Positions 824-58,235 of a stretch of 64,000 bases of DNA are shown piece after piece. Location: NCBI GenBank assembly GCA_025336685.1, contig GCA_025336685.1_4717.1. One strand, given 5' to 3'. The notes beneath the pieces are model-generated. The model worked only from the letters and a program-made list of their open reading frames with translations. It was not told the origin of the DNA and did not search any database. The position numbers were made by a program, and so were the translations under genes. The stretch comes from Escherichia coli. GTDB taxonomy: Bacteria > Pseudomonadota > Gammaproteobacteria > Enterobacterales > Enterobacteriaceae. Within the stretch, counting starts at the first letter, position 1, and every line of letters begins with the position of its first letter.

Positions 824-1105
824 GTGTTGTTTCCATCAAAATCGGATTGGCGTGAAAGGCACGGCGAGTATATCGTTAACGGTTTACTGGCGTTAAAAGC
901 GTGGTTATTGGAGCTTCAGTTCGAAAGAGACGGCTTCTCATGCCGGAGTCCGGCTGAACCGTTGATTGTCGCAATTCCTCCGGTTGGTTCTGGTTGCGGT
1001 AATATCGGTTACGGACAATCTGAAACAATCCAGCCTCAATGGGTACGCGCACAAATCAAACAGTATCTTGCCACCGTGCCGAACGTTCATTTCTACTTGT
1101 TCTAA
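824..1105 (+). CDS. hypothetical protein (93 aa)
   Basis: ORF ends 17 nt before the 1122-1153 hairpin; frame assignment in 600-1105 is ambiguous. Confidence 0.2.
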   Translation: MLFPSKSDWRERHGEYIVNGLLALKAWLLELQFERDGFSCRSPAEPLIVAIPPVGSGCGNIGYGQSETIQPQWVRAQIKQYLATVPNVHFYLF

Positions 1106-2145: not shown

Positions 2146-4758
2146 TTATACGTCCGGCGTAAAATCAAAAGGAACGTCCGTACGAATGATATCATAACGT
2201 TTTCCTAAGAAATAGAACTCTTCGGGAACCAGACCGGGAATAATGCTATCGCCGATGAACTGTGGGTATGCCCAGATGTACTGAGTGAGTCCTTCGAACA
2301 TATCCAGGTTATTTGCGTGGTTACCCATGATACGTTTCCAGAGTTCGCGTTTATACGGTGTTTTGACATCGAACCCATAAAGCGGTGCGAGGTCTTCGCC
2401 AGGAACAAACCCCAGGTAATAGTGGATCTGACTAACCGGGAACCCAAGCGTATCTCGCGGAATGGTGATCGCTTGCTCGGCCTTGGTGACATGCGTCTCA
2501 ATAATCCAGTCGTAGCACTCCGAATAGAACCGATCGAATTTCTCTGGATTATACCACGCTTTGGGAAGATTCAGTTTCTCCGTGAACGCGTTCGACATGA
2601 TCGTCGGCAAGAACGGAAGAACGCCGGTTTTGATCTGCGTGTATTTCGATTTTACCCGATTGACTAGATTCCAGCAACTGTATCCTAATTGATCGTTGCA
2701 GAACTCAACGTAGAGATCGTAATCCCCACCCGATAATGGATTATTAATATCGCCGATGTCTGCCGCATATTTGTTGGGGTATCGGTTATTGAAAGCCAGT
2801 TTGGTTTGGTAATCGTAAATGCACGGTTTATTGTTCTTCGTGTTAATCCACCACCAGGGTTCACCCACCTGCACACAAATGTCTTGGACATGCGGGTAGA
2901 TGATATCAGCAAACGCGGTTAACACATCCCCTAACCACGCCATCGCGTGTTGGTTGCATGGCGACAACAACCAAGACGGCGGCGTATATCCGGTTGCTGC
3001 TATGTTTCCTTCCCAATCCTGCTGCGCCCACTCGAACGGGCATGCCGTGCTCATCAATTCGTAACTTAAACTGATTGTAACAGAGAAATGGTGTTTTGCA
3101 GCGTATGCGGCGAAAGCTTCATGCCATGCGATACAGGGTGGGTTGAGTACATCTGTGGTGTTCACCAGTAACTTACTCGCACTTGGTGTCCAGACAGTAT
3201 CGTAGAAATGCGACATTCCAACATAGTGCACTAATTCATCTTGATATCCCGCATAAACCAGGTTCTCAAATACGCGTTCCGGCGTGATGTTGTAATGGTC
3301 GTCATAAGCGGTTATCGCACGAAGCTCGTGTGGTGTACATTGGTGACGATTAACCGTCATTTCCTGATACACCCCATCAATAGGAAGAATCTCGAGGGTT
3401 AAACCGAGGTCGATCGGTGTTTCCAGGTAGGTCGTTTCTGTAGCACCTTCCTTATAATGTCGAGAACTCATGCTGAACATCAACGACGTGACCGATTCGA
3501 GTTCGATAGGTTCGTCAGCATAGAACCCCGCCATTGCGTCGTTGAAATCGATCGTTACGATTGCGCTTCTACCATCTTCAGAGACGTCGGTGGCGTATCG
3601 GGTTAATGAGATATACTGACGGCTATCGTCTTTGTGTACGACGGTTAAAACCGGCGGGTTTTCGGTATCCGCAAAGTTACGCTGATCGCCAGTAAACGTG
3701 ATCTTGGCTTTAAAGATCAAACCGAACAACGACGTCATGGGATCATACGCAACACAACCATGATCTAGCGTATCCGTTGTCCGCCATTCTATCCCTACCA
3801 ACCCGTTAGCGGTATGGCATCGCATATACGCATTAAGTGTCATGTCTTCACTGACAACCGCGAAGTTCTCTGTAGATTGACCGTTGATAATCCAATACAT
3901 CGGTTGCCAGAGGTTACGCGTGCCTTTTGCGTAGCGGTAGGTTGGTGCGCCTTTAGGGTTGCCGTTATTGAGATGGAATACAGCCGTACCTTGGTAATGA
4001 TCGTTCGTGTTAATCGGAACACTGTACGCGTCGCCGAGGTCCGTACGTTCGACCTTCGTGACAGTTGCGTTTTCAAACAGCCCACGTAGTGTAGGAAGAC
4101 CAATGTCATCAGGCGCGTTTTCTCGGCGAATCGCGTCCGCGATGCGGTGGGCTAGGGCGGGGTAAATGGTCTCACCCTGCTGTAGGTTTGCAAGACCTAC
4201 AAAGCGATCGGGGTTGATACCAGCAATCAATAACTCGACATCGCCCTTCGTTCTATCGTCATGGAGGTATTTCAGTCCAGTAAGATCAAGATGTTGAATT
4301 AACGACAACAGATTGTACTTACGGTTTTCAACAGTCAGTACAAGATCACCTGCCCAAACCAAACTTCCCTCATCCGCCGTTACTCTAACGGATTGGCGGC
4401 CTGTGGTAGACGTTGTTGTCGTTTTATTTAATTGTCCTTGTAGGAAGTCGGTTGCGAGGTCAAAGGCAACGCCGTAACGGTCAGCGACCGCCTGCATGAT
4501 TTCACGTAACTGGGTATCTTCTTCAATGATGATCTTGACAGGTATTCCCAAGAACGCCTTGGCGAGGTCTCGCTTAACCATCGAGACGAATACGGATTTG
4601 TAATATCGGCCTCCATCTTTCCCTTTAAAAAGAATGGAGGTTGTTTCGGGTGACGATAGAACACGTGCAAATTCAACATCGTCGAAAGTAAGAGAAAGTC
4701 CGTTTTTCTCGTTGGTTAATCTTAGTATTTCATTTTGCGCGGTTTCATGTAACTTCAT
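2146..4758 (-). CDS. tail spike/fibre-like receptor-binding protein (870 aa) with shared N-terminal anchor domain
   Basis: N-terminal ~170 aa (KRDLAKAFLGIPVKI...VWAGDL) paralogous to four other proteins in the window; large distal domain of unknown fold; TGAGG SD. Confidence 0.55.
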   Translation of the reverse strand: MKLHETAQNEILRLTNEKNGLSLTFDDVEFARVLSSPETTSILFKGKDGGRYYKSVFVSMVKRDLAKAFLGIPVKIIIEEDTQLREIMQAVADRYGVAFDLATDFLQGQLNKTTTTSTTGRQSVRVTADEGSLVWAGDLVLTVENRKYNLLSLIQHLDLTGLKYLHDDRTKGDVELLIAGINPDRFVGLANLQQGETIYPALAHRIADAIRRENAPDDIGLPTLRGLFENATVTKVERTDLGDAYSVPINTNDHYQGTAVFHLNNGNPKGAPTYRYAKGTRNLWQPMYWIINGQSTENFAVVSEDMTLNAYMRCHTANGLVGIEWRTTDTLDHGCVAYDPMTSLFGLIFKAKITFTGDQRNFADTENPPVLTVVHKDDSRQYISLTRYATDVSEDGRSAIVTIDFNDAMAGFYADEPIELESVTSLMFSMSSRHYKEGATETTYLETPIDLGLTLEILPIDGVYQEMTVNRHQCTPHELRAITAYDDHYNITPERVFENLVYAGYQDELVHYVGMSHFYDTVWTPSASKLLVNTTDVLNPPCIAWHEAFAAYAAKHHFSVTISLSYELMSTACPFEWAQQDWEGNIAATGYTPPSWLLSPCNQHAMAWLGDVLTAFADIIYPHVQDICVQVGEPWWWINTKNNKPCIYDYQTKLAFNNRYPNKYAADIGDINNPLSGGDYDLYVEFCNDQLGYSCWNLVNRVKSKYTQIKTGVLPFLPTIMSNAFTEKLNLPKAWYNPEKFDRFYSECYDWIIETHVTKAEQAITIPRDTLGFPVSQIHYYLGFVPGEDLAPLYGFDVKTPYKRELWKRIMGNHANNLDMFEGLTQYIWAYPQFIGDSIIPGLVPEEFYFLGKRYDIIRTDVPFDFTPDV

Positions 4759-5528: not shown

Positions 5529-6194
5529 TTAAATTGATGTTAGATACTGCTTACCTCCGACAAACGATGTCAACCAGTTCCCACTGACGAGCTGTGATAC
5601 CCAGCCAGGCACTGCCCTACCGTTCTGGCTCATCACATTACCCGCCCATCCCGGAAAACCAGGTCGGAAAATATATACTTGAATATGTGTTAAAGCGTTA
5701 TCATTACCTCCACCAACAGCAACATTACGACGTCCGGATGATGGGAAATATTCTTTTAAGAACAGGGGATCGTTTGCCAATAAAGAAGCGGGCCAAGGAT
5801 TAGCGGATGCGTCAACATCGAATTCGGTCCATCGCCATTTGCGTCCGGTATCGAACCAGGTTGACGTACCACCGCCACGCACCGCAAGATTGCGTGCATC
5901 ACGGGCACTGTATATTGATTCGATGTTTCGCCACCCACCTTTTGCGGCGTTTGCCGCATAGCAAATCGCATTACCACCATTCTTCTTTTCGTAAACGGTT
6001 CGTTTGATATGAACACGGTCGATAAACGCTTCACCGTATTTGTTGACGAGTGTTTGCGCGATATCACGAAGATCGTGCATATGAAAGGCGATGTCTTCGT
6101 TGTGGAACCACGTTGTCGGGTTCCAAACGGTGCCGTTTGGTTCGGCACACATCGATCGGATATTGTTGCGTTGATTAATCGCGATAAAGCCCAT
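5529..6194 (-). CDS. hypothetical tail-module protein (about 221 aa), paralog of 4781..5422
   Basis: Same C-terminal module with different N-terminal region; start chosen at internal ATG 6192-6194 with GAGG SD (ORF track extends to 6257 through the terminator). Confidence 0.5.
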   Translation of the reverse strand: MGFIAINQRNNIRSMCAEPNGTVWNPTTWFHNEDIAFHMHDLRDIAQTLVNKYGEAFIDRVHIKRTVYEKKNGGNAICYAANAAKGGWRNIESIYSARDARNLAVRGGGTSTWFDTGRKWRWTEFDVDASANPWPASLLANDPLFLKEYFPSSGRRNVAVGGGNDNALTHIQVYIFRPGFPGWAGNVMSQNGRAVPGWVSQLVSGNWLTSFVGGKQYLTSI

Positions 6195-6246
6195 GGTCCA
6201 CCTCGTTCCTGTTCTCGAAGGAAATTTCATACGATGACGCCATAAC

Positions 6247-6303
6247 AGCTCCCCCATCCTCCCAACCCGTAAGGGAAGGGAGGATGTAAGGGAAGGAGGA
6301 GCT
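6247..6303 (-). terminator. nested GC-rich hairpin terminator
   Basis: Inner stem CATCCTCCC/GGGAGGATG (6255-6263/6278-6286) with loop AACCCGTAAGGGAA, enclosed by AGCTCC/GGAGCT; downstream of the lipoprotein gene. Confidence 0.5.
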
Positions 6304-7273: not shown

Positions 7274-10200
7274 TTACATAAACTCCTCGATGATGCAAAT
7301 CCCGTCAGCGCCACGCCCGCCACGCATAACGGTTCCAGTGTAACCGTTATCGTAAGCGCCGCCGCCCGAACCTCGTGCGAGGCCGTTTGACCCACCGCCA
7401 ACAGCTGCGCGACCACCGCCACCCCAATATGACGCACCCCCACCACCACATACAGGAAATGCGCCAGCCTGACCGTCATCACCATCACCACCTGAAATGC
7501 GTATATCCCCGGTACTAGGTACACCACCACCCCCACCGCCAGTGTTTGTGACAGTTGTTTTTCCTGCGCCTTGCCCACCGGGAGCAGTCAGCAGGGATGC
7601 AAATTTACTATCCCCGCCCCTGTTTCCAACTGTTGCCCCGGAACCACCAGTGCCACCAGAACCAATTACAACAGAATAACTAGTAGCCGCTACCGTTATA
7701 ACCGAAATTACTGTTGCCCCGGCCCCACCGCCAGCACCAAAAAACGTTTCGCTGTTGGAAAAAGCCTGGCAACCACCACCGCCGCCTCCACCACCGGTTA
7801 ATATTACTCTAATCCGTTTTGTTCCTTGTGTTGGGGTGTACGTCCCTGACGATGTGAAAACACGCATGTTCAGTAAACGTCCGACATATCCACTAGAATC
7901 GGCTAAACCAAGATCTTTAGCTGCTAACGTGATATTAGCTGTGCCATCGAAAGGTTTACCGTTAATCGTGCGTGCCGTCTGCAGCTTCGTGGCCGTTGCT
8001 GCGTTTCCTGACGTATTCTGGTTTCCCGCGGCGTTAACACCTGGTAGATTGATGTTCGCACTACCGTCGAAAGACACCCCACCAATGGTGCGGGCTGTCT
8101 TCAGTTTTGTCGCCGTGGCGGCATTACCGGTCGTGTCTTGGTTACCGGTGGTGTTTACCCCAGGTAGGTTGATATTGGCTGTTCCGTTAAATGAAACACC
8201 ACCAATCGTCCTTGCTGTTTGCAACTTCGTTGCGGATGCCGCATTCCCCGTGGTGTTTTGGTTACCTGTTGCATTCACGCCTGGGATGCTATCCTTAGAT
8301 GTGTAGATCTGTGCCCATTCCGACCAGTTCGAATCGGCCGCATCACGACGTGAACGTAGGTAAGCTGGAGCGTGTGCGCCTGAGGTACCTGACCACCCAA
8401 TGAGGATTTCACCTTCACCGACCGATGAAGCCCCTTTAAGATGAATGATGTTACCATAAGCGGTGGGATATCCGTTATTGTACGCTTCATACATCTGGAT
8501 GCCCGCATTGCTGCCCTGAGCCGTGTTAGCTAAGGCCGTAACACGACCTTTGGAAGCGAGAGCGTTAATACTGAAGCTAATATCCTTAGTACCGTCAAAG
8601 GCGACCCCATTAATCTTCCGTGCTGTTTGGAGTTTCGTAGCAGTAGCCGCATTACCAGAGGTACTCTGATTACCTGCTTTGTTCACGCCCGGTAAATCAA
8701 TGTTGGCTGTTCCATCAAAGGACACACCCCCTATGGTTCTCGCTGTCTGGAGTTTTGTTGCTGAACCAGCGTTTCCAGAAGTGCTTTGATTACCTGCCGC
8801 GTTGACACCCGGTAGGTCAATGCTAGCAGAACCATCAAAAGAAACTCCACCGATCGTGATCGGTGTTTTCAATTTCGTGGCTGTCGCAGCATTACCCGTC
8901 GTATTCTGATTGCCAGCAGCATTAACACCAGGTAATGCGATATCGGTCGTACCATCGAACGCAACACCACCGACTTTACGGGCGGTCTGTAGCTTGGTCG
9001 CTGTAGCCGCGTTGCCGCTGGTATTTTGCGTGCCTGCTTTATTTACGCCAGGCAAATCAATGTTCGCAGTACCATCAAAAGAAACACCCCCGATGGTTCT
9101 CGCGGTCTCAAGTTTGGTTGCGCTTCCTGCGTTTCCGCTGGTGCTTTGATTTCCCGCTGCATCAACACCTGGTAGATTGATGCTGGCCGAACCATCGAAA
9201 CTCACACCACCGATAGTAACAGCGGTTTTCAACTTCGTCGCCGTTGCTGCGTTACCGGTTGTATTTTGATTGCCTGTCGCATTAACGCCCGGTAATGCAA
9301 TATCCGCTGTTCCGTCAAAGGCAACGCCACCGATTCTACGTGCAGTTTGTAGCTTGGTTGCACTAGCAGCGTTACCGCTGGTATTCTGGGTGCCAGCTTT
9401 GTTAACACCGGGGAGATCGATATTAGCAGAACCATCGAAGCTGACGCCACCTATCGTTCTTGCAGTATCGAGTTTAGCTGCTGTGGCTGCATTATTACCC
9501 ACTTTCAGCCAATCATCCCATGGACCATCCTGGCCGTTCCATGATGCCGTTAAACTACGTACGTAAATATTGCCGGTACGTACAGTGTAACGTTGCGTTC
9601 CACCGAATTGTCCGGCAGGGAGCACTTCAAGGTAACCTGCAGCATTTGCTTCAGGGAAATTGTGGGCGACGTCCGCGTTCGTTGATACTGGTTTAGACCA
9701 AATACCCACAGACACTTCAACCGGACCGTAAGTATTCAGATTTGCGTCGGTGGGGAGCTGTCCTCGAAAACGTTGGAATTGTGTCGCCGATAACCCCAAC
9801 GTTGTTTGCATGCTTTCAATGCTGGATTGCTGAAGTAACGTCCGTGCTGTCGATGTAATCACGGTAAGCGCAACTTTATTAACACCGGTGAAATACGGGA
9901 GTTTGTCTGCTGATGTCGCTAAACCTGAAAAGGCGGTCAGTAATGCGTTAAGGGGCTGCTTCCCAGCTAACGCATTTGTTACCGTCGTTGCGAAATTAGG
10001 ATCGCTTCCTATAGCTCGAGCCAGCTTATTAAGCGTATTTAGCGTCGCTGGTGACGAGTCGATCAGCGCCGTGATCGCACGCATCACAAATTCCGTGTTG
10101 GCTATCTGTCGACTGCTATTGTTAACTGCTGCGGTGGGCGCTGCTGGCGTACCAGTGAATACAGGGCTATTAAGATCCGCCTTGAGGGCGATGAGACGTT

Positions 10201-11149
10201 TAAGCGCTTCAACATCGACTTTCAGGTTTTCCCATCCGATGAGAGAACCACCACTGTTGGCATGGTAACGGTTGTACCAGAAGTCACCGTTAACGCCTAA
10301 AAAGAATATTCCCTTCTCTTCGTTTTGTGGGCCGGAACTATTTCGTGATGCGCTGATATATTTGATTTTAATAATACCGTTAAACACCACTCCTGGGATT
10401 ATTTCGCTGCTTCCAGCTAACTGTGATACTTGGTAAATCCCCGGGGTCGCAGCTTTAACCCATGTTAAGAATTCTGTTACTCCGGCGTTACCACTGAAAT
10501 TCTTAACGTCGGTAAGTATCGCACCATAACCGAACATACCGGGCAGAGCAACTCGTCCGTTGGTACGGTCACGAATATTTGATGCGATTACAGGTAGCTG
10601 TTTACGAACATTATTAACCGCCTTAGGTGTGGCCGATTTTGTCTCATCGTCGCTATCGATGGCGTTGCTCAGGATGGTCAGCCCTCGCTTAGCAGTAGTT
10701 GCATCAGGAAGAAATGCGTTATCCAACACCTTAAGCTGTATTGCACTCGTATTACTAACAACGACATGCATCTGACAGTTAAGAACGCTGGTTGCGCCTT
10801 CGGTAGGCATAGGCTTATATCTTTCTGGTGCACTGCAGACGGCAATCAGAACACCCTTGTCGTCGTACAGACCGATCTCACGTACCCAGAACCCACCTTG
10901 ACTGGCAGGAATAATACCCTCAACGACAATCCTGGTTGTACTATCGCCATCCGCATGGATATTAGAAACTTCCCCACGATAAACTTCGTGAACAAGCGCT
11001 GTTTGGCTGGCGGTCGGGGTTGGTGTCGAGCCGTTACCATCACCAACGGCAAAGTGTGTGATTTTTAGTTTCTCACCGTCGGGAAGTAACGCAGCGGTGA
11101 TACGTTCTGCTCCTTTATCGGTAACTACCGTTTTATATGCTGTACTCAT
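7274..11149 (-). CDS. long tail fibre protein (about 1291 aa from internal Met; ORF track 1318 aa)
   Basis: About 12 degenerate ~34-aa repeats (TARTIGGVSFDGTANIDLPGVNxAGNQNTSGNAATATKLQ) typical of phage fibres; Gly-rich C-terminal domain; likely start MSTAYKTVV at 11147-11149. Confidence 0.8.
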   Translation of the reverse strand: MSTAYKTVVTDKGAERITAALLPDGEKLKITHFAVGDGNGSTPTPTASQTALVHEVYRGEVSNIHADGDSTTRIVVEGIIPASQGGFWVREIGLYDDKGVLIAVCSAPERYKPMPTEGATSVLNCQMHVVVSNTSAIQLKVLDNAFLPDATTAKRGLTILSNAIDSDDETKSATPKAVNNVRKQLPVIASNIRDRTNGRVALPGMFGYGAILTDVKNFSGNAGVTEFLTWVKAATPGIYQVSQLAGSSEIIPGVVFNGIIKIKYISASRNSSGPQNEEKGIFFLGVNGDFWYNRYHANSGGSLIGWENLKVDVEALKRLIALKADLNSPVFTGTPAAPTAAVNNSSRQIANTEFVMRAITALIDSSPATLNTLNKLARAIGSDPNFATTVTNALAGKQPLNALLTAFSGLATSADKLPYFTGVNKVALTVITSTARTLLQQSSIESMQTTLGLSATQFQRFRGQLPTDANLNTYGPVEVSVGIWSKPVSTNADVAHNFPEANAAGYLEVLPAGQFGGTQRYTVRTGNIYVRSLTASWNGQDGPWDDWLKVGNNAATAAKLDTARTIGGVSFDGSANIDLPGVNKAGTQNTSGNAASATKLQTARRIGGVAFDGTADIALPGVNATGNQNTTGNAATATKLKTAVTIGGVSFDGSASINLPGVDAAGNQSTSGNAGSATKLETARTIGGVSFDGTANIDLPGVNKAGTQNTSGNAATATKLQTARKVGGVAFDGTTDIALPGVNAAGNQNTTGNAATATKLKTPITIGGVSFDGSASIDLPGVNAAGNQSTSGNAGSATKLQTARTIGGVSFDGTANIDLPGVNKAGNQSTSGNAATATKLQTARKINGVAFDGTKDISFSINALASKGRVTALANTAQGSNAGIQMYEAYNNGYPTAYGNIIHLKGASSVGEGEILIGWSGTSGAHAPAYLRSRRDAADSNWSEWAQIYTSKDSIPGVNATGNQNTTGNAASATKLQTARTIGGVSFNGTANINLPGVNTTGNQDTTGNAATATKLKTARTIGGVSFDGSANINLPGVNAAGNQNTSGNAATATKLQTARTINGKPFDGTANITLAAKDLGLADSSGYVGRLLNMRVFTSSGTYTPTQGTKRIRVILTGGGGGGGGCQAFSNSETFFGAGGGAGATVISVITVAATSYSVVIGSGGTGGSGATVGNRGGDSKFASLLTAPGGQGAGKTTVTNTGGGGGGVPSTGDIRISGGDGDDGQAGAFPVCGGGGASYWGGGGRAAVGGGSNGLARGSGGGAYDNGYTGTVMRGGRGADGICIIEEFM
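7905..8285 (-). repeat. coding tandem repeats, block B (about 3 units) inside the long fibre gene
   Basis: Same ~34-aa unit after a ~100-aa non-repeat spacer. Confidence 0.55.
8575..9485 (-). repeat. coding tandem repeats, block A (about 9 units of ~102 bp) inside the long fibre gene
   Basis: Repeated GGVSFDG...LPGVN...TGNAATATKL units read from the translation; DNA copies are diverged. Confidence 0.6.
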
Positions 11150-11156
11150 GGTGTTT

Positions 11157-11684
11157 TTATCCTGGATAAATAGTGATGATATCACCAATGACCGTTGTGG
11201 CACCGGCGTAAAGATGAGCCGGAGATACATCGTGTTGGTTTGTCACGGTAAGATCCAATCGACCACGCCAAACCATGGAGGTATTCGCGATGGGGATAGA
11301 AATCTTTTTGGATATATCGTCACGAAAATCAATAACAGTGGCAAGGGTAACTGTATCAAAGTCAACGTCGGGGTCAAAGACGAACCCGTATTGATCTGAA
11401 ATCGCCCGAATAATCGCGTGTATAGTTGTTGTCTTAACAGACTCTAAAACGATTTTTATTGGTATTCCTAGAAATGCCTTCGCAATATCGCGTCGAGCGT
11501 AAACGATAAAACTTTCACCGTTCCACCTTGTTCCTTCATTTGCTGTGACGATCACTTTTGCCCTGTTAGCACCAGAACTTCCATCCAAGACTAATGTAAG
11601 ATCGGAGCTGTTGAATACGCTACTGTTACGTCTGTTTATCAACGACGTCAGTTCGTCTTTCCATGGCGGGTAAAGTGAACACAT
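11157..11684 (-). CDS. free-standing anchor-domain protein (about 175 aa) upstream of the long fibre
   Basis: Paralog of the N-terminal domain of the 870/590/503-aa proteins (YARRDIAKAFLGIPIKI); start MCSLYPPWKDEL with GGAGGAGGG SD. Confidence 0.5.
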   Translation of the reverse strand: MCSLYPPWKDELTSLINRRNSSVFNSSDLTLVLDGSSGANRAKVIVTANEGTRWNGESFIVYARRDIAKAFLGIPIKIVLESVKTTTIHAIIRAISDQYGFVFDPDVDFDTVTLATVIDFRDDISKKISIPIANTSMVWRGRLDLTVTNQHDVSPAHLYAGATTVIGDIITIYPG

Positions 11685-11797
11685 ATGTGCACCCTCCTCC
11701 AACATAACCAGATTAAATATATATTTCTTAAACGTGGGACACGATTCGAGATAAACGTTAACGGTCTTAACGACCGCATAAAATTCCGCGCATATTA

Positions 11798-11841: not shown

Positions 11842-13596
11842 TTATGCTGCTACATATCCAGGCCAACGTTCTCTTGGCCAGTTTGTTGCGCCCTGTCCAA
11901 CGTTGTCCTTACCAGAAATTACGTTACTTACATCCCATCCACTCAGATCCTGATTGAACGCGGTGTTTTCGCGCATCATGAGATCGATCTTACGTAGTGA
12001 ACGGGTATTCCAGCCGGAAATGTCTTGGTTGAATGCTGTATTGTAGGCAAACATGTTAGACACGCTTTGTAACTTCGATGTGTTCCAACCACTGATGTCG
12101 CTATTGAACGACATGCTCGAGAACATGCTGCTCGCATCAACAAGGCTGTCGGTTTTCCAATTAACCAGTTTATCACCATCAAGCGCAGCGCTGCTGCTGA
12201 ACATAAAACTCATGTCGTTAACTTTGGACACATCCCATTTATCCAACCCGTTACCCACGAACGCGGGACAGGACGAGAACATATAACTCATATTAGTAAC
12301 CCGACTCACATTCCATTTACTGAAGTCGAGGTTAAGTTTCTGACACCCTAAGAAGGTTTTAGACATGTTGGTGATACGACTAACATCCCACTCTTGGATG
12401 TTGGGGTCGTTAAGTGTCGTTAAATAGTTGAACAATGTCGCTAACGACGTCCATTTCTGTGGAATCTGGTTTGGTACCGTACGAAGCGATGCGAGGTTGT
12501 TGGTTGACGGAGAGCAGAACATGCCGTTATCCCAATTTACGATCTCCGTAATTTTGGACCCTTTGATCGTCTGAGTGACGTTACCATCTTTCACCATACC
12601 TGTAGCGACGATGGTATATTCACCGGTGTCCGCATAATCGTGGGAGTAGGAGTTGTTGCTTGAGGTCTCCGTTACTTTATTCCCATCACCCCAATCGATA
12701 TTGACCTTATCCCATCCACCTAGATAGAACTGTACTTTGCCTCCGGTGGCTTTTAGGATGTATTTACCCCCATTGTCTGTATAATAACAGACGACCATCG
12801 AACCGTACAGATTACCTATCTGCCAATCATCCTTTTGCGTTATTGCGATTTGCGCCGCACCACGCTGTACGAAGAGTACCGTACGATTCTCGGCAGTCTG
12901 TAATGTGGTTATTGCCTGAGCCTTATCGTCCTCGCTAATTTCGCCAGACGCCACCAAAGCGCTTAACATCCTTTCGAAGTATTCGATCGGTAACTCGGTT
13001 CCAACAGACTTATCAACAGACGATACGGCAAGATCACCCAATGCTGCGGTGGTAGCCAACGCCAATGAACCCTTGGTCATATCTGTTTCTTGGATGTAAT
13101 GCAGTCCTGTAAGCTGGTACGCTTGAATAATAGTAATCAGGTTCAGCGTATCGTTAACGACCTGTACCTGTAAATTCCCGGACCATACATAACTGCTTTC
13201 AGCAATCGGTAGTTCGACCGACTGAATACCCGATGTTTCAAAGGTGATCTTCTTATTAAGATCGGTTTCCAGGAAATCAACCGCGAGGTCGAAATTCATG
13301 CCGTACTTTTCAGCGATGGAATCTACGATATTCTTGAAAGCAACATCGGTGCTTACGATAAAACGTAACGGAATTCCTGTAAACGCTTTAGCGATATCTC
13401 GACGAACATACGTAAGCGATTGTTCGAAGAAATAGGGACTGTTATCTCCAGGCTTGATGGTTACCTGACACGCTTCAGGATATTCAGCTGGGATGAACGA
13501 TTCGAATTTAACATCGGATTCCTTCAACGAAAGCTTGTTATTTCGGTTCACTAACGCCAGAAGATCGGCTTTCCATCCGGGGTAAACTGTAGACAT
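11842..13596 (-). CDS. receptor-binding protein: anchor domain fused to DUF285/BspA-like repeat domain
   Basis: N-terminal anchor paralog; C-terminal repeats WNVSRVTNMSYMFSSC / WDVSKVNDMSFMFSS / WNTSKLQSVSNMF match the DUF285 repeat signature; start MSTVYPGW with GGAG SD. Confidence 0.6.
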   Translation of the reverse strand: MSTVYPGWKADLLALVNRNNKLSLKESDVKFESFIPAEYPEACQVTIKPGDNSPYFFEQSLTYVRRDIAKAFTGIPLRFIVSTDVAFKNIVDSIAEKYGMNFDLAVDFLETDLNKKITFETSGIQSVELPIAESSYVWSGNLQVQVVNDTLNLITIIQAYQLTGLHYIQETDMTKGSLALATTAALGDLAVSSVDKSVGTELPIEYFERMLSALVASGEISEDDKAQAITTLQTAENRTVLFVQRGAAQIAITQKDDWQIGNLYGSMVVCYYTDNGGKYILKATGGKVQFYLGGWDKVNIDWGDGNKVTETSSNNSYSHDYADTGEYTIVATGMVKDGNVTQTIKGSKITEIVNWDNGMFCSPSTNNLASLRTVPNQIPQKWTSLATLFNYLTTLNDPNIQEWDVSRITNMSKTFLGCQKLNLDFSKWNVSRVTNMSYMFSSCPAFVGNGLDKWDVSKVNDMSFMFSSSAALDGDKLVNWKTDSLVDASSMFSSMSFNSDISGWNTSKLQSVSNMFAYNTAFNQDISGWNTRSLRKIDLMMRENTAFNQDLSGWDVSNVISGKDNVGQGATNWPRERWPGYVAA

Positions 13597-13614
13597 AAGC
13601 ACTCCAAAGTTCAT

Positions 13615-17246: not shown

Positions 17247-18077
17247 TTAATCGTAACTGAAATAAAGTTTGCTGCTGACGCCGCTATCGGAATGAGGTTT
17301 TAATACCAGAACAGAGCTTCCGAACGACGGAAGTATCGGAACATTTAAATCGTTTGCGTCGGCAACTTTTCCGTTATAAACGACACTGGCTGTTGTGATA
17401 AGTTCCCAAGCTAAGGCATAACTCATTGAAATCAGTGAAGAGGCTAAACGGAATGCGTTGTATCCTTCAGGAGAATCTCCAACCGACAATGAACGTATCG
17501 CATCTTGCGGTGGTAAATTTAGCTTGATGCCGTAGGTGCTAAACGTGTGGAAATCCCCTTGTTTACTATCTTCTGGATAGTAAGAGGTTAGCGGTTCTCG
17601 CACCGTAATCAGTTCGCTAATATCGGTATTTACCGCTTTTCGTGCGAGGAATTGAAACGTACCGTACCACGATGCTGATGCATCAGAACGAATAGGAACA
17701 GTTATGGTTTTCTCGCCGCTTTCAAATTCAATCTGTGTCGCTAACGTTGAAGAATCAAAGATCGTTAAATCGATCTTCAACCCATACTTCTTAAACAGCT
17801 GCGTTAAGCAGTCTGCTATAGTCGTCATATCAGCAACGACAATAAAAGGTTGGTGTTTGATAAAGAGCTTATTAATGTCTCGACGTTGAAGATAAACCTG
17901 CACGGGGTCTTCGATATAGTAAGTCGATTGTGATGTGGGGACTATAGAAAGGCGTAACCGACCTGATGCACCATACCAGGCTGGCGTTAGCGTAATGTCT
18001 GACGGGGATAATGGGTGCTGGAGGTCGGTGTTTATTTTAGATAACACTTCCTCTTGCCATGATGCTTCAGGATACAT
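17247..18077 (-). CDS. free-standing anchor-domain protein (276 aa)
   Basis: Diverged paralog of the anchor domain (YLQRRDINKLF...); TGAGG SD; first gene after the 18163-18190 terminator. Confidence 0.45.
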   Translation of the reverse strand: MYPEASWQEEVLSKINTDLQHPLSPSDITLTPAWYGASGRLRLSIVPTSQSTYYIEDPVQVYLQRRDINKLFIKHQPFIVVADMTTIADCLTQLFKKYGLKIDLTIFDSSTLATQIEFESGEKTITVPIRSDASASWYGTFQFLARKAVNTDISELITVREPLTSYYPEDSKQGDFHTFSTYGIKLNLPPQDAIRSLSVGDSPEGYNAFRLASSLISMSYALAWELITTASVVYNGKVADANDLNVPILPSFGSSVLVLKPHSDSGVSSKLYFSYD

Positions 18078-41107: not shown

Positions 41108-42214
41108 CATTCTGTTCAGATAAGGTCGTTAATCTTATCCCGTTAAAATAACAGCTGTAGATTATCTCTACAGTTCGGACTATATCACGATCTCCTTCCC
41201 TGGAGACCCCTCCCGTTTCACACCCACTTGGGCGTTACGCTACTCATCACTATTTTTATTCATCCGTTTAGTGCTTTCGCTAGTCTCTGGGCATTCTTCT
41301 ACAAGTCTGTACGATTCAAATTTGGGATTTTTACTACCTAATCGATAAAGTATCGTTGCCGGAACAACACCTAACTGCCGAGCCGCCTCAGTTAAAGAGA
41401 CATACTGAATTCCGTCGATTTCCACTTTACGTGCTGTAGTGGGAATCTTCCCCTTATTCACTTCGGCAAGACGACGTCGCGTCTCTTCTGTATGGTGTCG
41501 CCCATAGAACGAATTCTTTTCCCCGGTTCGGGTTTTTGCAAACTCTGATATCTTTCGACGAGTTTCTTCGCCAACCTTTACACCTAGGCGTCTAGCCCTA
41601 GACGCCGCGATGTTTTCGGGAGTGCATACTTTTCGCCGAATGAGTTCACGTGTTTCCGGTGTATGTGTTCGACCATACATCCCGTTACGTTCGCCCGGAT
41701 TGCCATGAACAGCGCGCCTTTGTTCAGGCGACATCGAAGCGAATCGATCGTTAACGACTTTAGTTATTTTCTCGATTATGTCATCGCGACGTGGGTTTCT
41801 CGATAAATTATCACCGCCTAAAGCACCTTTCCCGATATTGAGAGATGCTTCTTCCGGGATGCTATCGATATACACCTGCTCTAAAGCGTATGCCTCTTCT
41901 CGGGTACTACATTCATCGATATCCACGGTGATAAATCCACCACGGTTATGGATATCTTGTAATTTAGCGTTGTGGTGAGAACCATTACGCAAAGCCGATC
42001 TGTGCGTAGCTAACCGCTGATTAATGTTCCCGGTGCTACCAACATAGACATCGCCGTCTTGAGTACATAACCGATATACTACTGGTTTTTTCATACTGCC
42101 TCCTTTAAAAGAGAGACAGACTTGTAGAAGGTTAGCAACGGATTAGCCCGTAGGCTTTCCCGTTTTAAGGAGGTTATTCGACGTAGCTCACGCTACGAAG
42201 GCGCAGTTGCGTTT
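41108..42214 (-). mobile_element. group I self-splicing intron (1107 nt) interrupting thyA, carrying a homing endonuclease gene
   Basis: Exon 1 ends in U (CAGCGU), intron ends in G (AAUG) before exon 2; P7 strands CCAGAGACUAG (plus 41279-41289) and GAUAUAGUCC (41177-41186); P9 hairpin CUGUAGA-GAUAA-UCUACAG (41155-41173); P8-like hairpin GGUCUCC...GGAGAUC. Confidence 0.8.
41240..42094 (-). CDS. intron-encoded GIY-YIG homing endonuclease, I-TevI-like
   Basis: N-terminal VYRL...DVYVGST GIY-YIG module with conserved Arg/Glu; repeated NGMYGRTHTPETR / NSFYGRHHTEETR NUMOD3-like motifs; C-terminal HTH; AAAGGAGG SD inside the intron. Confidence 0.8.
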   Translation of the reverse strand: MKKPVVYRLCTQDGDVYVGSTGNINQRLATHRSALRNGSHHNAKLQDIHNRGGFITVDIDECSTREEAYALEQVYIDSIPEEASLNIGKGALGGDNLSRNPRRDDIIEKITKVVNDRFASMSPEQRRAVHGNPGERNGMYGRTHTPETRELIRRKVCTPENIAASRARRLGVKVGEETRRKISEFAKTRTGEKNSFYGRHHTEETRRRLAEVNKGKIPTTARKVEIDGIQYVSLTEAARQLGVVPATILYRLGSKNPKFESYRLVEECPETSESTKRMNKNSDE

Positions 42215-51332: not shown

Positions 51333-51342
51333 CGGTTAATGA

Positions 51343-53240: not shown

Positions 53241-53276
53241 CTCCTCCCCACACCTTTCCAGGGGAGGAGTTTTATC
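53241..53276 (+). terminator. plus-strand terminator-like hairpin in the leader of the SNF2 gene (attenuator or small-RNA terminator)
   Basis: CTCCTCCCC/GGGGAGGAG 9-bp stem, 11-nt loop, followed by TTTTATC; sits 30 nt upstream of the SNF2 start. Confidence 0.45.
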
Positions 53277-53304: not shown

Positions 53305-55386
53305 ATGTTGGATAGAATCAATCGTTTAATGAACCGAATGACGGTTAAAAATCAGAGTAACAATACCGTGCATATCGGGGGTATCGATGCGTGGCGTCTT
53401 TCAGATGACATTCAGCGAATATGGGGTACCTCCCGATTTATGAAGCACATGTTTCGTAATTTTTCTTCTAGTGGGCTCAGTCTCCACAACTTTTACCTCC
53501 CCGATTTCGTTTATATTCTCGAAACGATCATCGAGGCAAAGAATACCCGTAGCAACAAACGCATGCTGAAACACCTTATCGAGATACTACTACAGGAAAC
53601 ATGGTTGCAAAATACCACCATCGAGCAGCCCGCAATCCTCGATAAAGCACGCATGAACAAAATGCTAACGCTCTCTCTGTTCGATTATCAAGATGAGTTC
53701 ATCGACATCTATAACCGTAACGTACCTAAATACCGACTGAAAGGATACGTGTGTGCGATGGGTGCAGGTGCCGGTAAAACGATCACAGCGCTGGCATTAA
53801 GCGCCGCAATGAACGTCGATGTATTTGTGGTCTGCTGTCCTAAGAACACCATGCGTTCAGCATGGCAATCCGATGTAAACAAAGCCATCGTTGATCCTGC
53901 AACAGAAACCGCGTTCTGGTCAGACACAATGCCACCATCACAGCTGCAGAAAAGCGATAAGTACTATTTTCTACATTACGAATCGATGGGCTTATTAAAC
54001 GATGTGATGATCAAGCATAAACGCACAGCGAAGCGCGTTCTTATTGTTGTTGACGAAAGCCATAACTTCAACGACAAGAACAGCCAACGTTCCCAGCGAC
54101 TGGTTGATCTTGTACAGACAATGCGTCAGACCATGAATGCGGATGTGCACGTCTTGTTTATGTCAGGTACCCCTGTTAAACAGATGGGTTCTGAGATGAT
54201 CCCATGTTTAGGTTGTATCGATCCGATGTTCCAAGGACAGGTGGTCGATAGCTTCAAAGCAATTTACGGTTTAACCAGCAGCCGTGCTAACGATATCCTC
54301 AGACATCGTCTTGGGTTCATGATGCATGTCGTACCTAAAGAGGCTTACCGTAAAACCCGTCCGGAAGTTCAGGATGTTTACGTGAAGCTTCCTAATGGTA
54401 GCGATTATACCATCTCGAGCATTCGTGACGACATGGCGATATTTGTACGCGATCGGGCGAAGTATTACAAGGATAACTGGGGACATTACCGAAAGATTTT
54501 TGATGATGCCTTGGACTACTATCGTAAGACTATTCGTACCGACGGAGAACGTAAAGAGCTATCTCGATACGAATCGATTGTTGCGCGTTTCCAGAAAGGT
54601 TACGATCCCGTCAGAGACAAAGACGATGCGATGTTCTGCAGCGCGTTTGAAAAACGTTCCATCATGCCAGTTCTTCCTTCTGATTTAAGGGTTGCTTTCA
54701 AAGACGCCAAGAGCGTCATCAAGTACGTTGGGTTGAAAATTCAGGGTGAAGCATTGGCCCGTGTTCTGGGCGCAGCGCGCATTCGGTGTCATGTCGACAT
54801 GGTGGAATACATCGACTTCGAAGGGTACATCAATAACGCCGAAGCCAAAGTGTTGATCTTCACGTCGTACGTTCAGGTGGTTGAACGCGTCGATAACATG
54901 CTTCGTGATGCGGGCTTCTTACCGGAACCCATTTACGGGAAGACCAACAAAAACATCAACCAAATACTTGCCCGTCTACGCGACGATCCTGACAGCGGTC
55001 CCGCTATCGCAACCTTTGATAGCTTAGCTGAAGGGGTTCCGATGCTGATGTGTAATGTGGGTCTCTTCTTGAACAACCCGTGGCGTTCATCCGATGAAAT
55101 CCAAGCCATCAGCCGTCTCGACCGTGTAGGGCAAACGCAACCTGTTCGGATTTATCGTTTCATGTTAGATACGGGAAGCGAGGGTAACGTTTCTACCCGT
55201 AGTCACGAAATCATGGAGTTAAGTCGACAGCTTGTTGAAGAAATCACGGGCGTCAAATATGTAGTGAACAAGCAAGATGATGTTAACTTGCAAGAAACGT
55301 TGGCGATGGAAGGATACGATCAATACGTTACCGTAAACGCCACGGAATACGATATTAAACCACGACCTGCGTTCTTGGAATGGTAA
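53305..55386 (+). CDS. SNF2-family (SF2) helicase/ATPase
   Basis: DYQDEF motif, Walker A GAGAGKT, Walker B VVDESHNF, SGTP motif III, C-terminal helicase domain. Confidence 0.8.
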   Translation: MLDRINRLMNRMTVKNQSNNTVHIGGIDAWRLSDDIQRIWGTSRFMKHMFRNFSSSGLSLHNFYLPDFVYILETIIEAKNTRSNKRMLKHLIEILLQETWLQNTTIEQPAILDKARMNKMLTLSLFDYQDEFIDIYNRNVPKYRLKGYVCAMGAGAGKTITALALSAAMNVDVFVVCCPKNTMRSAWQSDVNKAIVDPATETAFWSDTMPPSQLQKSDKYYFLHYESMGLLNDVMIKHKRTAKRVLIVVDESHNFNDKNSQRSQRLVDLVQTMRQTMNADVHVLFMSGTPVKQMGSEMIPCLGCIDPMFQGQVVDSFKAIYGLTSSRANDILRHRLGFMMHVVPKEAYRKTRPEVQDVYVKLPNGSDYTISSIRDDMAIFVRDRAKYYKDNWGHYRKIFDDALDYYRKTIRTDGERKELSRYESIVARFQKGYDPVRDKDDAMFCSAFEKRSIMPVLPSDLRVAFKDAKSVIKYVGLKIQGEALARVLGAARIRCHVDMVEYIDFEGYINNAEAKVLIFTSYVQVVERVDNMLRDAGFLPEPIYGKTNKNINQILARLRDDPDSGPAIATFDSLAEGVPMLMCNVGLFLNNPWRSSDEIQAISRLDRVGQTQPVRIYRFMLDTGSEGNVSTRSHEIMELSRQLVEEITGVKYVVNKQDDVNLQETLAMEGYDQYVTVNATEYDIKPRPAFLEW

Positions 55387-55391
55387 TTAAG

Positions 55392-55419
55392 AAGCTCTGT
55401 CTGATGTCAGACAGAGCTT
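55392..55419 (+). terminator. intrinsic terminator hairpin (13-bp stem)
   Basis: AAGCTCTGTCTGA/TCAGACAGAGCTT perfect stem after the SNF2 stop, followed by TATGCCGTGTTTGTT. Confidence 0.65.
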
Positions 55420-55485
55420 TATGCCGTGTTTGTTACAAAATCGTATGGCGTATATGCGTTGTACTTATTAAATAGGACAGAATAC

Positions 55486-56937
55486 ATGAAACTCAAACAA
55501 AGCTGGAAAGACGAACTTCTTGCGTTAGTAAATAGCAAAAACAGTTTACAGCTGACATTAGCCGACGTAAAATTTGAACTAACTGAACCGGTAAGCGAAG
55601 TGCCCGGAACGGTTACTGTTACGATCAAACCGAACGATGATAGCCGTTACTTTAACGAGCAGTCTCTGACCTACATCCGTCGAGACATCGCTAAAAACTT
55701 CACCGGGATCCCGTTACGGGTTATCGTTAAAAATGATACTGCCGTAAAGGATATCATCAACACGATCGCTGAACGTTACGGATTGGTATTTGACACAACC
55801 GTCGACTTCCTCGAATCCGAGCTGAATAAACAAATTACGTTCGCAGACACCGGTATTAAAGACATCACGGTTCCGGTTGCAAACACGTCTTATGTTTGGG
55901 CTGGTAATCTTCAGTTCAACATTGCTAACGATACGTTAAGCTTGATTACGATCATCAAGCAAACCGATCTTACGAATCTGGTTTATCTGGATGGTGTTGA
56001 AGCTGATACAACGGGATCGTTACTATTAGCAACGACCTCGGTTATCGACGAAAACGGAAATACCGAAACAACTGAAGGTGTCCTTGACGCAGCGCACTTC
56101 CAGAATGTCCTGAACGTCATGGTTCGTTATGGTGATATTACCAACGAACAAATGCAACAAGCAATGCAGACAATTAACCAAAGCGAAGACGTTCGTAGAG
56201 TAGAGGTGAGATCATACGGTGACGCCGAATTACTGGTAACCACCAAGAAAGATTGGGCTATCGGCAGCCTTAAGGGTGCTATGGTTGTTGGACGCGCTTC
56301 ACCTAAACCGATCCAATACGTTCTTAAAACAAAAGGCGGCAGCATTATATTATCATTAGATGGTTGGACAAATGTTTCCATCGATTGGGGTGATGGGAAT
56401 AAGACGACGGAGGACTCAGTCGATAATGAATATCGGCACACCTATGCGGACACTACAGAACGTACGATCGTCGCTACGGGTACCCCTACCAACGTTGAAG
56501 ATACAGAGGTACAGCAAAGCTTCACCGGTGGTAACATCACTGAAATCGTTGACTGGAACAACGGATTACCTAAGGCCCCATCATTACCTGCGGCGAACAG
56601 TTTAACTAAGGTTCCTAATTATATCCCGGCATACTGGACATCGTTAGAAGGTATGTTTACACGATGCAGCGTTATTAACGACGTGAACATCACCAAATGG
56701 AACACCCGCAACATTACTTCAATGAAGGACCTCTTCTACGGTTGCGCTGCGTTCAACCAACCGATCGGTTCGTGGGATGTTTCGTCTGTTAAGAATATCG
56801 ACAATATGTTGTCTGGATGCTTCGCGTTCAATCAGGATCTGAGTGGTTGGACATTCCCGGCAGGCACTTCACACATCAACTACGACGGCATGACCGCCGT
56901 GTGGAGTACTGAACACAAACCACACTTCGCTGAGTAA
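55486..56937 (+). CDS. receptor-binding-like protein: anchor domain fused to DUF285/BspA-like repeats, encoded outside the tail module
   Basis: N-terminal anchor paralog (YIRRDIAKNFTGIPLRVI); C-terminal WNTRNITSMKDLFYGC / WDVSSVKNIDNMLSGC repeats; start MKLKQSWKDEL with AGGA SD. Confidence 0.6.
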   Translation: MKLKQSWKDELLALVNSKNSLQLTLADVKFELTEPVSEVPGTVTVTIKPNDDSRYFNEQSLTYIRRDIAKNFTGIPLRVIVKNDTAVKDIINTIAERYGLVFDTTVDFLESELNKQITFADTGIKDITVPVANTSYVWAGNLQFNIANDTLSLITIIKQTDLTNLVYLDGVEADTTGSLLLATTSVIDENGNTETTEGVLDAAHFQNVLNVMVRYGDITNEQMQQAMQTINQSEDVRRVEVRSYGDAELLVTTKKDWAIGSLKGAMVVGRASPKPIQYVLKTKGGSIILSLDGWTNVSIDWGDGNKTTEDSVDNEYRHTYADTTERTIVATGTPTNVEDTEVQQSFTGGNITEIVDWNNGLPKAPSLPAANSLTKVPNYIPAYWTSLEGMFTRCSVINDVNITKWNTRNITSMKDLFYGCAAFNQPIGSWDVSSVKNIDNMLSGCFAFNQDLSGWTFPAGTSHINYDGMTAVWSTEHKPHFAE

Positions 56938-56956
56938 AAAAAAATAGTTAGCATAT

Positions 56957-56989
56957 CTTCCTCCCTACCCATAACGGGCGGGGAGGAAG
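56957..56989. terminator. bidirectional terminator between convergent genes
   Basis: CTTCCTCCC/GGGAGGAAG stem with 15-nt loop; A9 run on one side and TTTATG on the other gives a U-tract on both strands. Confidence 0.65.
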
Positions 56990-57006
56990 GTTTATGTGGC
57001 TATGAC

Positions 57007-57345
57007 TTAGAACCAGAGTTCTTTCATGAGGTAGGCTTCCATATCGTAGATAAGCCACTCGTCAGGAATTTCTAAAGGATCGTCTTCGGTTAAGGTCAGC
57101 ATGTGCAGGGCGAACGCACGCTTAATATCGTTCAGCAGTTTCTCGTCGTCGTAACCTTCGGGTAGTTTACGGTCTACCAGTTGGGTTTGTTTATAGACAG
57201 CACAGAACGCTTCAGGGCTATGTTTGTCCATCGGAAATTGTTCGGCGGCCTGGACCATCGTCAACGTCCAGCTTACAACATTGTAACGCTCACCGTTAAT
57301 TTCACTGAACTGATCATCGATTAAACAGATTTGTTGTACGTTCAT
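57007..57345 (-). CDS. hypothetical acidic protein (112 aa)
   Basis: ORF, D/E-rich. Confidence 0.4.
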   Translation of the reverse strand: MNVQQICLIDDQFSEINGERYNVVSWTLTMVQAAEQFPMDKHSPEAFCAVYKQTQLVDRKLPEGYDDEKLLNDIKRAFALHMLTLTEDDPLEIPDEWLIYDMEAYLMKELWF

Positions 57346-58235
57346 TCATTTTCTCCATTCTTATCTTGGTCGCAATCGCACTCTTCGACGTCTTTCTTAC
57401 TTAAACGTAAGACACCAAGTGCGGCATGCTTGAGTTCTTGCAACGCGCTTTTCAGCTGACCTTCTTCATCGAAATCAAAATACTTCTCGTTGTAGCTTAA
57501 TGCTGGAATCATATTTACGAGAGGCTCGATGGCAGGCATCAACATTTCAATAACAACCTTAGGATCAACAAAGCGTTCAAACCCTTCAGGAAGTTTGCTT
57601 ACCACAACTTTATCGTTCTTGATGAAGAATTTGTTCTTGAACAAATCGTCAAGAATAGCGTTCTCTTCATCCGTACGTTTTGCGTGAGGACGATCGATCA
57701 TCTGCACAAACACATCACTCAACGCTTCAGGCAAGGTCGGATTTTCACGAAGAGAAGTTCCAGCCGGAATTTCAATATCGATCTTTGCCCACTCAACAAC
57801 CTGGTGATCTCGTGTGTAGATAACATCGACTTCCCATGCCAGGCCGTCCGGACTTTCTACGGTGTAGCGTGTTTTCGCCTGACCTTCCGGAGCCATACGC
57901 TCGATAGCATCAAACATCTCGACTGGAATTTCGACTTCGCTTTCCGTTGCATCGCCTGGACCACGATACACCTTCGTGGTCATGATGTATTTCGGTTCTT
58001 CGTTATCGATCTGTATAGCTCGTGCTCGTACTTGACCTTTCACACCACCAACGGCCGTGTTATCAAACAACCATTGATGTTGCACCATATGTTCGATTTT
58101 TGATGCTACTTGACGAAGACGCTCAACACCATCCTCAGCCAGTTTACCAAAGAAGACCAGCTCACGTTCCTGCTGTGTCTCACCACTTAACATCATTAAA
58201 TTGGCGATTTGTTTCACGCCTCTTACTTTTGACAT
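57342..58235 (-). CDS. hypothetical protein (297 aa)
   Basis: ORF with GGAG SD, acidic. Confidence 0.45.
   Translation of the reverse strand: MSKVRGVKQIANLMMLSGETQQERELVFFGKLAEDGVERLRQVASKIEHMVQHQWLFDNTAVGGVKGQVRARAIQIDNEEPKYIMTTKVYRGPGDATESEVEIPVEMFDAIERMAPEGQAKTRYTVESPDGLAWEVDVIYTRDHQVVEWAKIDIEIPAGTSLRENPTLPEALSDVFVQMIDRPHAKRTDEENAILDDLFKNKFFIKNDKVVVSKLPEGFERFVDPKVVIEMLMPAIEPLVNMIPALSYNEKYFDFDEEGQLKSALQELKHAALGVLRLSKKDVEECDCDQDKNGENE

Follow-up and report, generated by a model that had tools for sequence, protein, structure and literature searches.

A probable virion-borne host-recognition protein with a DUF7941 anchor and a variable leucine-rich-repeat tip, encoded beside the helicase of a Goslar-like jumbo phage

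The subject of this study is a pair of plus-strand open reading frames (ORFs) at positions 53305-56937, with minus-strand genes on either side, in a 64,000-nucleotide stretch of DNA from an Escherichia coli assembly (hereafter, the window). The first ORF encodes a helicase and the second a protein of 483 amino acids (aa). Judged by its sequence, the window is that of a Goslar-like chimallivirus, a nucleus-forming jumbo phage of E. coli; at the DNA level the region of the two genes shares 94% identity with Escherichia phage vB_EcoM_Goslar (Goslar), and the databases compared held zero identical sequences, the top IMG/VR contig reaching 94.8% and the top protein cluster 95%. The two genes are:

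53305..55386, plus strand: SNF2/SF2 helicase, 693 aa (Pfam, PDB matches, orthology to Goslar gp160 and RAY gp131)
55486..56937, plus strand: gene of the 483-aa protein, 484 codons including the stop (orthologue of Goslar gp161)

An earlier reading of the window (the sequence-only reading) had paired an SNF2 helicase with a 484-aa protein in what it described as the only plus-strand island of the window. The pairing stands, both ORFs having been confirmed, while the length does not: the start ATG of the second gene lies at 55486 and not at 55483, which gives 483 aa. Nor is the island the only one, as other plus-strand coding is found at 274..603 and 554..1102. The two peptide motifs quoted in that reading were both located in the 483-aa protein (aa 405-420 and 430-445).

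The gene order is the same in Goslar (helicase gp160, then gp161 and gp162), and the succession of helicase and gp161 is also kept in two related contigs, L010 and L005, and in dozens of contigs of ~235-247 kb. Goslar gp161 and the 483-aa protein have equal length (483 aa), the same domains and 91.7% aa identity. The 483-aa protein is thus a 92% orthologue within a family described in 2026.

Two domain families were recognised. DUF7941 (PF25613) covers aa 4-214 with 85.8 bits against a cut-off of 27 (E = 4.6e-24, profile positions 5-222 of 276), and DUF285 (PF03382) matches the C-terminal part with 78.4 bits against a cut-off of 25. The PARCEL repeat model TIGR02167 scores marginally (32.4 bits, cut-off 30, one repeat scored), and a pattern search located two clean DUF285/PARCEL repeats and one degenerate one, so that the DUF285-type repeats of the sequence-only reading are recovered by both models. 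As for the BspA-like character, the Pfam model of the BspA-type repeat (LRR_5, PF13306) gives no match at E <= 0.1 in the 483-aa protein, the predicted structure does show a TpLRR/BspA-like leucine-rich-repeat (LRR) solenoid, and the BspA-type name of Goslar gp161 in RefSeq is a generic label of the Prokaryotic Genome Annotation Pipeline.

The AlphaFold2 model, built on 51 homologues, is confident over aa 180-483, with a predicted local distance difference test (pLDDT) of 85-97, and consists there of a helical bundle, a beta-sandwich and an LRR-type solenoid. Combined with the Pfam matches, the model divides the protein into four parts:

55486..55992, plus strand: part 1, DUF7941 N-terminal globular domain, aa 1-169 (Pfam; profile match to phiKZ gp127; at least 86% identity among 55 orthologues)
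55993..56196, plus strand: part 2, linker and short helical bundle, aa 170-237, where hypervariability starts (AlphaFold2 helices at 179-237; Pfam match to about aa 214; identity to L005 falling from 95% to 59% at about 56001)
56197..56559, plus strand: part 3, beta-sandwich with a PKD-like WGDG...HxY motif, aa 238-358, the most variable segment (AlphaFold2 strands at 238-358, pLDDT 85-96; 22 clusters at 90%)
56560..56937, plus strand: part 4, DUF285/PARCEL LRR solenoid, aa 359-483, about three repeats of 25-26 aa and a cap, followed by the stop

For the beta-sandwich of part 3, a weak Pfam match to PKD in a paralogue at 11842..13614, described below, can be cited. The N-terminal domain was linked to a known virion protein by a profile: nine DUF7941 N-terminal domains, this one included, match phiKZ gp127 (PDB 9xqd chain 0) with E = 4.3e-7 over residues 12-163, whereas a single-sequence phmmer search of the 483-aa protein against PDB sequences returned zero matches. 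The anchor is therefore homologous, at the level of the profile, to a DUF7941 member seen in a virion structure. By analogy with these relatives, aa 1-169 would act as a conserved anchor or oligomerisation module, and we propose that the LRR solenoid (aa 359-483) is the ligand-binding tip.

Constant N-terminal domain and variable distal part

Among 55 cluster representatives of the orthologues, aa 1-169 fall into one cluster at the 90% level, with a minimum identity of 86%, while identity in the distal two-thirds of the protein falls to 30-57%. The beta-sandwich and LRR segments separate into 22 and 24 clusters at 90% identity, respectively, and into 8 each at 80%; some of the orthologues are domain-level mosaics. 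The family of the tail-module paralogue displays the same gradient from conserved to variable, and the ~8% aa divergence between Goslar gp161 and the 483-aa protein likewise lies mostly in the distal domains.

The boundaries of the variable part are clearest in the comparison with L005, a 238-kb contig of an E. coli assembly with the gene order of the window. The 483-aa protein is 61.6% identical between the two, against 89-99% aa identity for the flanking proteins. Along the DNA, sliding-window identity stays at ~90-95% up to 56000, drops to 44-64% over 56001-56900 and returns to 81-97% directly past the stop, which places sharp breakpoints near codon 172 and at the stop and delimits one further feature:

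56001..56900, plus strand: exchangeable distal cassette (sliding-window DNA identity to L005 of 44-64%, against ~90-95% in the flanks)

The protein thus combines a conserved proximal anchor with a hypervariable, exchangeable distal domain, as is used to recognise the receptor-binding protein (RBP) class, and a constant anchor with a hypervariable tip is the typical signature of a host-recognition protein. A diversity-generating retroelement was considered as the source of the variability and rejected, the window having no template repeat and the divergence not being adenine-specific.

The sequence-only reading had raised the idea of a recently acquired alternative RBP cassette. Its RBP half is supported by the domains, the virion orthologue and the variable tip; its other half, that the whole gene landed recently beside the helicase, we regard as unlikely. 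The distal 900 bp have clearly been exchanged or have diverged between phages that are otherwise ~92% identical, the slot downstream of the helicase differs between genera, and the gene is flanked by hairpins, all of which would suit an acquisition. Yet the gene and its position are common to Goslar, L010, L005 (where the orthologue is at 62%) and the dozens of ~235-247 kb contigs, and the helicase-gp161 order, being shared among Goslar-like phages, shows that the gene did not arrive recently. Furthermore, the 5' 510 bp of the gene are as conserved as the flanks, its G+C content is ordinary (0.43-0.47 against a window mean of 0.456), and the copy that does vary in presence is the paralogue in the tail module, not the 483-aa gene. 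Exchange is limited to the distal part.

The paralogue is the following feature:

11842..13614, minus strand: paralogue with DUF7941, a PKD-like domain and about seven DUF285 repeats, in the tail module between gp92-like and gp91-like genes (Pfam, sequence search)

The ORF has 590 aa, with a likely start at 13596 that yields 584 aa as in its homologues, and is 48% identical to the 483-aa protein over 445 aa (E = 4e-136). It is indeed the nearest relative in the window, as the sequence-only reading had stated for 11842..13596, though on the minus strand. Goslar has ~200 bp in place of window positions 11855-13599 and so is missing this gene, while the slot (gp92-like gene, paralogue, gp91-like gene, tail fibre) is filled in the Goslar-like contigs L089 and L090 and is common in the clade.

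DUF7941 occurs in 2146..4758, 11157..11705, 11842..13614 and 17247..18077 as well. The claim that the anchor is shared with the tail-fibre proteins therefore holds for these four other ORFs and fails for the P1-S-like tail fibre itself (7274..11230), which lacks DUF7941 and starts with Phage_tail_fib. In the minus-strand ORF 2146..4758, the homologue of Goslar gp86, DUF7941 is joined to two domains known from the N4-type 'non-contractile tail sheath protein', its N-terminal domain and its TIM barrel (PF23844, PF23845; E = 4.9e-85), and these matches identify it as a podophage N4 gp65-like module in a jumbo myophage.

Virion association and the helicase setting

An April 2026 bioRxiv preprint reports the structure and quantitative mass spectrometry of the Goslar virion (10.64898/2026.04.21.720040). 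In purified virions gp161 was detected with 27 peptides, 54% coverage and ~111 copies per virion (range 74-174), so the orthologue of the 483-aa protein is not absent from virions. Each of the ten Goslar DUF7941 proteins was detected, and for two of them the copy number runs from hundreds into the thousands. Three carry DUF7941 followed by carbohydrate-binding, glycoside-hydrolase or LRR domains, one of these being gp161; gp86 and gp92, other DUF7941 proteins with binding or hydrolase domains, are present at ~5 copies each. In the preprint, gp161 is placed in a DUF7941 "fibre cloud" at the peripheral baseplate, and DUF7941 proteins are proposed to form long flexible filaments, anchored there, by head-to-tail polymerisation; purified gp22 forms filaments, with head-to-tail docking predicted by AlphaFold, and phiKZ gp127 sits on the outer peripheral baseplate, where it is modelled in the virion map PDB 9xqd (10.64898/2026.04.21.720040).

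The domains, the fold, the homology to phiKZ gp127, the synteny, the variability and the published mass spectrometry of the orthologue together lead us to consider the 483-aa protein likely to be a virion-borne, modular host-recognition (adhesin) subunit of a Goslar-like chimallivirus. Mechanistically, the DUF7941 module (aa 1-169 and the linker) would serve to attach the protein, either to the peripheral baseplate or to the network of DUF7941 filaments, possibly by head-to-tail docking in analogy with Goslar gp22/gp23 and phiKZ gp126/gp127. In turn, the distal part (the helical connector, the PKD-like beta-sandwich and the three-repeat DUF285/PARCEL LRR solenoid) would project outward and bind a ligand on the host surface. 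Strains would hold the anchor constant, while the distal cassette would be swapped or diverge rapidly by recombination, with breakpoints at about codon 172 and the stop. The attachment geometry, the binding of a host ligand by the tip and the timing of expression are what we infer here.

Several points weigh against this view. Chimallin (~126 'copies') was also present in the Goslar virion sample, as were E. coli proteins, so that incorporation of gp161 is not proven by mass spectrometry alone, and the Goslar baseplate map is without density for DUF7941 proteins (10.64898/2026.04.21.720040). The N-terminal domain of the AlphaFold2 model has low confidence (pLDDT 35-80). In Proteus phage 10 nothing occupies the slot after the helicase, and in some contigs the genes found there are unrelated. 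A TATG motif, which follows the hairpin between the two genes (see below), reads CATG in Goslar, and the same hairpin motif stands before the ligase and thyA units. Finally, our literature search found a binding or host-range experiment neither for this protein nor for any DUF285 phage protein.

The first two of these points would suit a non-virion, intracellular role of the 483-aa protein, a role that the sequence-only reading had also entertained for this fold, with its detection in virions being a carry-over of an abundant late protein. Although the chimallin in the sample leaves it a small probability, we hold such a role to be improbable: phiKZ gp127 is modelled in a virion map, all ten Goslar DUF7941 proteins were detected in the virion sample, two of them in very high number, and a constant anchor with a variable tip is what selection at the host surface is expected to produce.

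The neighbouring helicase bears on both the setting and a further alternative. The ORF at 53305..55386 scores above the Pfam cut-offs for ResIII, SNF2-rel_dom (31.9 bits, cut-off 24.9) and Helicase_C (30.1 bits, cut-off 23.5) and matches SWR1, ISWI and SNF2 chains in PDB with E = 2.5e-7 and weaker; with an SNF2-related ATPase lobe and a Helicase_C lobe, it belongs to the SNF2 family. It is 98.4% identical in aa to Goslar gp160 and has full-length homologues in ~200 phage records (205 counted). It is the virion-associated SWI/SNF family helicase that occurs across the chimalliviruses; its counterpart in Erwinia phage RAY, gp131, localises with capsids and had earlier been found in virions, and Goslar gp160 is present at ~10 copies per virion (10.64898/2026.04.21.720040).

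The sequence-only reading had seen here an adhesin in an early or replication context. This premise fails because the helicase is virion-associated in both Goslar and RAY; its adjacency to the 483-aa gene is ordinary, since the helicase is itself carried in the particle. Chimallivirus virion genes lie scattered, and the presence of a helicase next door is no sign of an early or replication setting. Just downstream, two small minus-strand genes without known domains (57007..57345 and 57342..58235) are homologues of Goslar gp162 and gp163. Since these are also reported in Goslar virions, at ~127 and ~45 copies, respectively (10.64898/2026.04.21.720040), the interval 53305-58235 reads as a small cluster of virion-associated genes.

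The position of the gene beside a packaged and probably injected helicase would also fit an effector that is ejected together with the helicase. Once infection has begun, its LRR would bind a host protein of the cytoplasm or envelope, in the manner of type III effector LRRs. Of the alternatives we give this one the least credence. The LRR matches reflect the fold in general and the best of them are surface proteins, the N-terminal domain puts the family on the outer baseplate, and ~111 copies with filament-forming paralogues suit an external structure.

A similar layout is found in other chimallivirus genera, with different virion or fibre-type genes in the slot. In RAY, Eowyn, Noxifer and Proteus phage 10 the helicase runs opposite to the direction of its neighbours and is followed by 0-2 same-strand genes. 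The downstream slot is taken by a DUF7941 protein in Eowyn (E = 8.6e-13); in Noxifer, as in three IMG/VR contigs, it holds phrog_11065, a 'virion structural protein', with C-terminal parts that are beta-propeller or tail-fibre-like in some cases; and in RAY it holds gp130, with a weak match to Gly_rich_2, the same domain that tips the P1-S-like tail fibre of the window. We also surveyed 79 IMG/VR helicase loci; the ORF calls were crude and noisy, so the survey was used qualitatively and no frequency of the island was derived.

From these examples (DUF7941-LRR in Goslar-like phages, DUF7941 in Eowyn, phrog_11065 in Noxifer-like phages, a glycine-rich tip in RAY) we tentatively put forward a broader idea, which we think more apt to be wrong than right. 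The helicase-headed island might be a conserved diversification hotspot across Chimalliviridae, its slot repeatedly capturing and exchanging host-recognition modules, and the gp161-type protein, at ~100 copies, might be the principal adhesin of a micron-scale DUF7941 filament cloud and thereby a main host-range determinant in jumbo phages of E. coli, Salmonella and Shigella.

Intergenic hairpins and other features of the window

Three hairpins punctuate the locus:

53241..53269, plus strand: CCTCC-rich hairpin with a 9-bp stem and an 11-nt loop, then TTTTAT, in the divergent intergenic region upstream of the helicase (folding free energy, dG, -18.1 kcal/mol; z -3.4)
55391..55420, plus strand: perfect 13-bp hairpin between the helicase and the 483-aa gene (dG -21.6 kcal/mol; z -6.1)
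56957..56989, no strand assigned: long CCTCC-rich hairpin between convergent genes, with an A-run before and TTTATG after (dG -32.9 kcal/mol on the plus and -26.9 on the minus strand; z -7.0 and -5.4)

The first is an annotated terminator in Goslar, and its stem is kept in Goslar, L005 and L010. The second shows one compensatory pair change (T-A to C-G) relative to the same three phages, and its end runs into TTTATGCCG (55418-55426), a recurrent intergenic motif. The third is conserved in all three and is a probable bidirectional terminator. Because the second hairpin separates it from the helicase, the 483-aa gene is probably transcribed separately, by the phage non-virion RNA polymerase.

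Two of the loops are flipped between relatives. The 11-nt loop at 53250-53260 matches, letter for letter, the reverse complement of its counterpart in Goslar, L005 and L010, and at the Goslar locus (L001) the 4-nt loop equivalent to 55404-55407 is ACAT, the reverse complement of the ATGT of the others; this suggests small inversions across the stem arms.

The sequence-only reading had the island bracketed by strong terminators. Stable hairpins do lie before, between and after the two genes; they are, however, generic intergenic punctuation, with about a dozen similar sites in the window. The recurrent element is a G+C-rich hairpin (often CCTCC/GGAGG) directly followed by (T)TTATG(C), found by a hairpin/motif scan at:

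1091-1170, 20009-20045, 26869-26894, 32990-33031, 43262-43291, 44845-44907, 51308-51336 and 63487-63525, minus strand: recurrent hairpin and (T)TTATG(C) sites
55391-55426 and 56957-56996, plus strand: recurrent hairpin and (T)TTATG(C) sites

The most intergenic-enriched 7-mers are CCTCCTC, GGAGGAG and TTTATGC, and 6 of the 13 sites of TTATGC[CT]G fall within the non-coding 8% of the window, all on the local coding strand. The element may act as a terminator, as a promoter core of the phiKZ TATG type, or as both; late promoters of phiKZ have the core TATG, with transcription from the G (PMC4666361). An assignment of the 483-aa gene to the late class through this core was tried and rejected, and expression timing is not inferable from TATG, because of its occurrence before the ligase and thyA units and the CATG of Goslar at this site; the motif is also partly the palindromic base of the terminator. 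A palindrome upstream of the helicase, TTACTCACGTAAGTAA, was dropped as a candidate recurring operator since it occurs once. A scan for sigma-70 promoters and simple terminators gave no enrichment over shuffles (the phage has its own RNA polymerases), and the literature yielded no time-resolved Goslar transcriptome.

Elsewhere the window departs from Goslar at several places. At its left end lies the other plus-strand pair: 274..603, a homologue of Goslar gp082 with 98% aa identity, and 554..1102, a homologue of the macro-domain protein gp083 that is just 76% identical to Goslar and may be a pseudogene, as an in-frame stop at 716-718 interrupts the ORF. A 242-aa ORF without a Pfam match (5529..6257, in a differing stretch at 5437-6294) is extra with respect to Goslar, Goslar gp096 and gp120 are missing (comparison sites 19620-19648 and 30600), and ~1.4 kb are replaced at 38162-39531.

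The thymidylate synthase gene is split, relative to Goslar, by a 1130-bp insertion (41095-42224), whose minus-strand ORF 41240..42094 encodes a 284-aa homing endonuclease with GIY-YIG, NUMOD3 and I-TevI-type DNA-binding domains. The arrangement is reminiscent of the T4 td intron with I-TevI; an Rfam scan of the insertion gave zero group I intron matches. An insertion in the relatives affects another SF2 helicase gene, the homologue of Goslar gp164, which in L005 (~9935-10660) and L010 (~11112-11833) contains ~720 bp in frame at the site equivalent to window ~59416-59444 (753 aa with the insertion against 524 aa here). Pfam returns no match for the inserted segment, which could represent an intein or else an additional domain.

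Comparison with known systems

Relative to what has been described for Goslar, the present analysis adds the boundaries of the cassette and its allele diversity, the fold assignment of the tip and the link of the anchor to phiKZ gp127. It also identifies the helicase partner as a virion protein in a recurrent island, and a tail-module paralogue (584/590 aa) that the phage of the window carries and Goslar lacks. If the distal cassette sets the adsorption range among enterobacteria, codons ~172-483 on an invariant anchor would constitute a swappable module for engineering or predicting host range, in phages that are attractive for therapy as most DNA-targeting defences fail against nucleus-forming jumbo phages. 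The natural alleles (8 clusters at 80% among the 55 representatives) offer a panel for testing the DUF7941 'fibre cloud' model.

Like the other members of the DUF7941 family, such as the filament proteins gp22/gp23 of Goslar and gp126/gp127 of phiKZ, the 483-aa protein has an N-terminal globular domain and a linker. Unlike them, it is without the DUF7941 C-terminal subdomain (the match ends at profile position 222 of 276) and carries the helical bundle, the beta-sandwich and the LRR tip instead. For the tip, the comparison set consists of the DUF285/PARCEL surface proteins (Mycoplasma and Listeria lipoproteins, TIGR02167) and the LRR proteins of the TpLRR/BspA class (6mlx, 4fs7, 4h09), from which the 483-aa protein differs in having only about three repeats, no lipoprotein signal or cell-wall anchor, and a phage anchor fused to the repeats.

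Mosaic tail fibres and RBPs, as in the T-even gp37/gp38 and the S-type fibres of P1, P2 and Mu, have a conserved N-terminal attachment part and an exchangeable C-terminal receptor-binding part. The 483-aa protein resembles them in its invariant proximal domain, its swapped distal domains and the sharp recombination boundaries. It differs in the missing trimeric fibre-shaft motifs and the missing adjacent chaperone or assembly gene, in its copy number (~100 against 6-18) and in the position of its gene, which lies outside the tail module, beside a packaged helicase.

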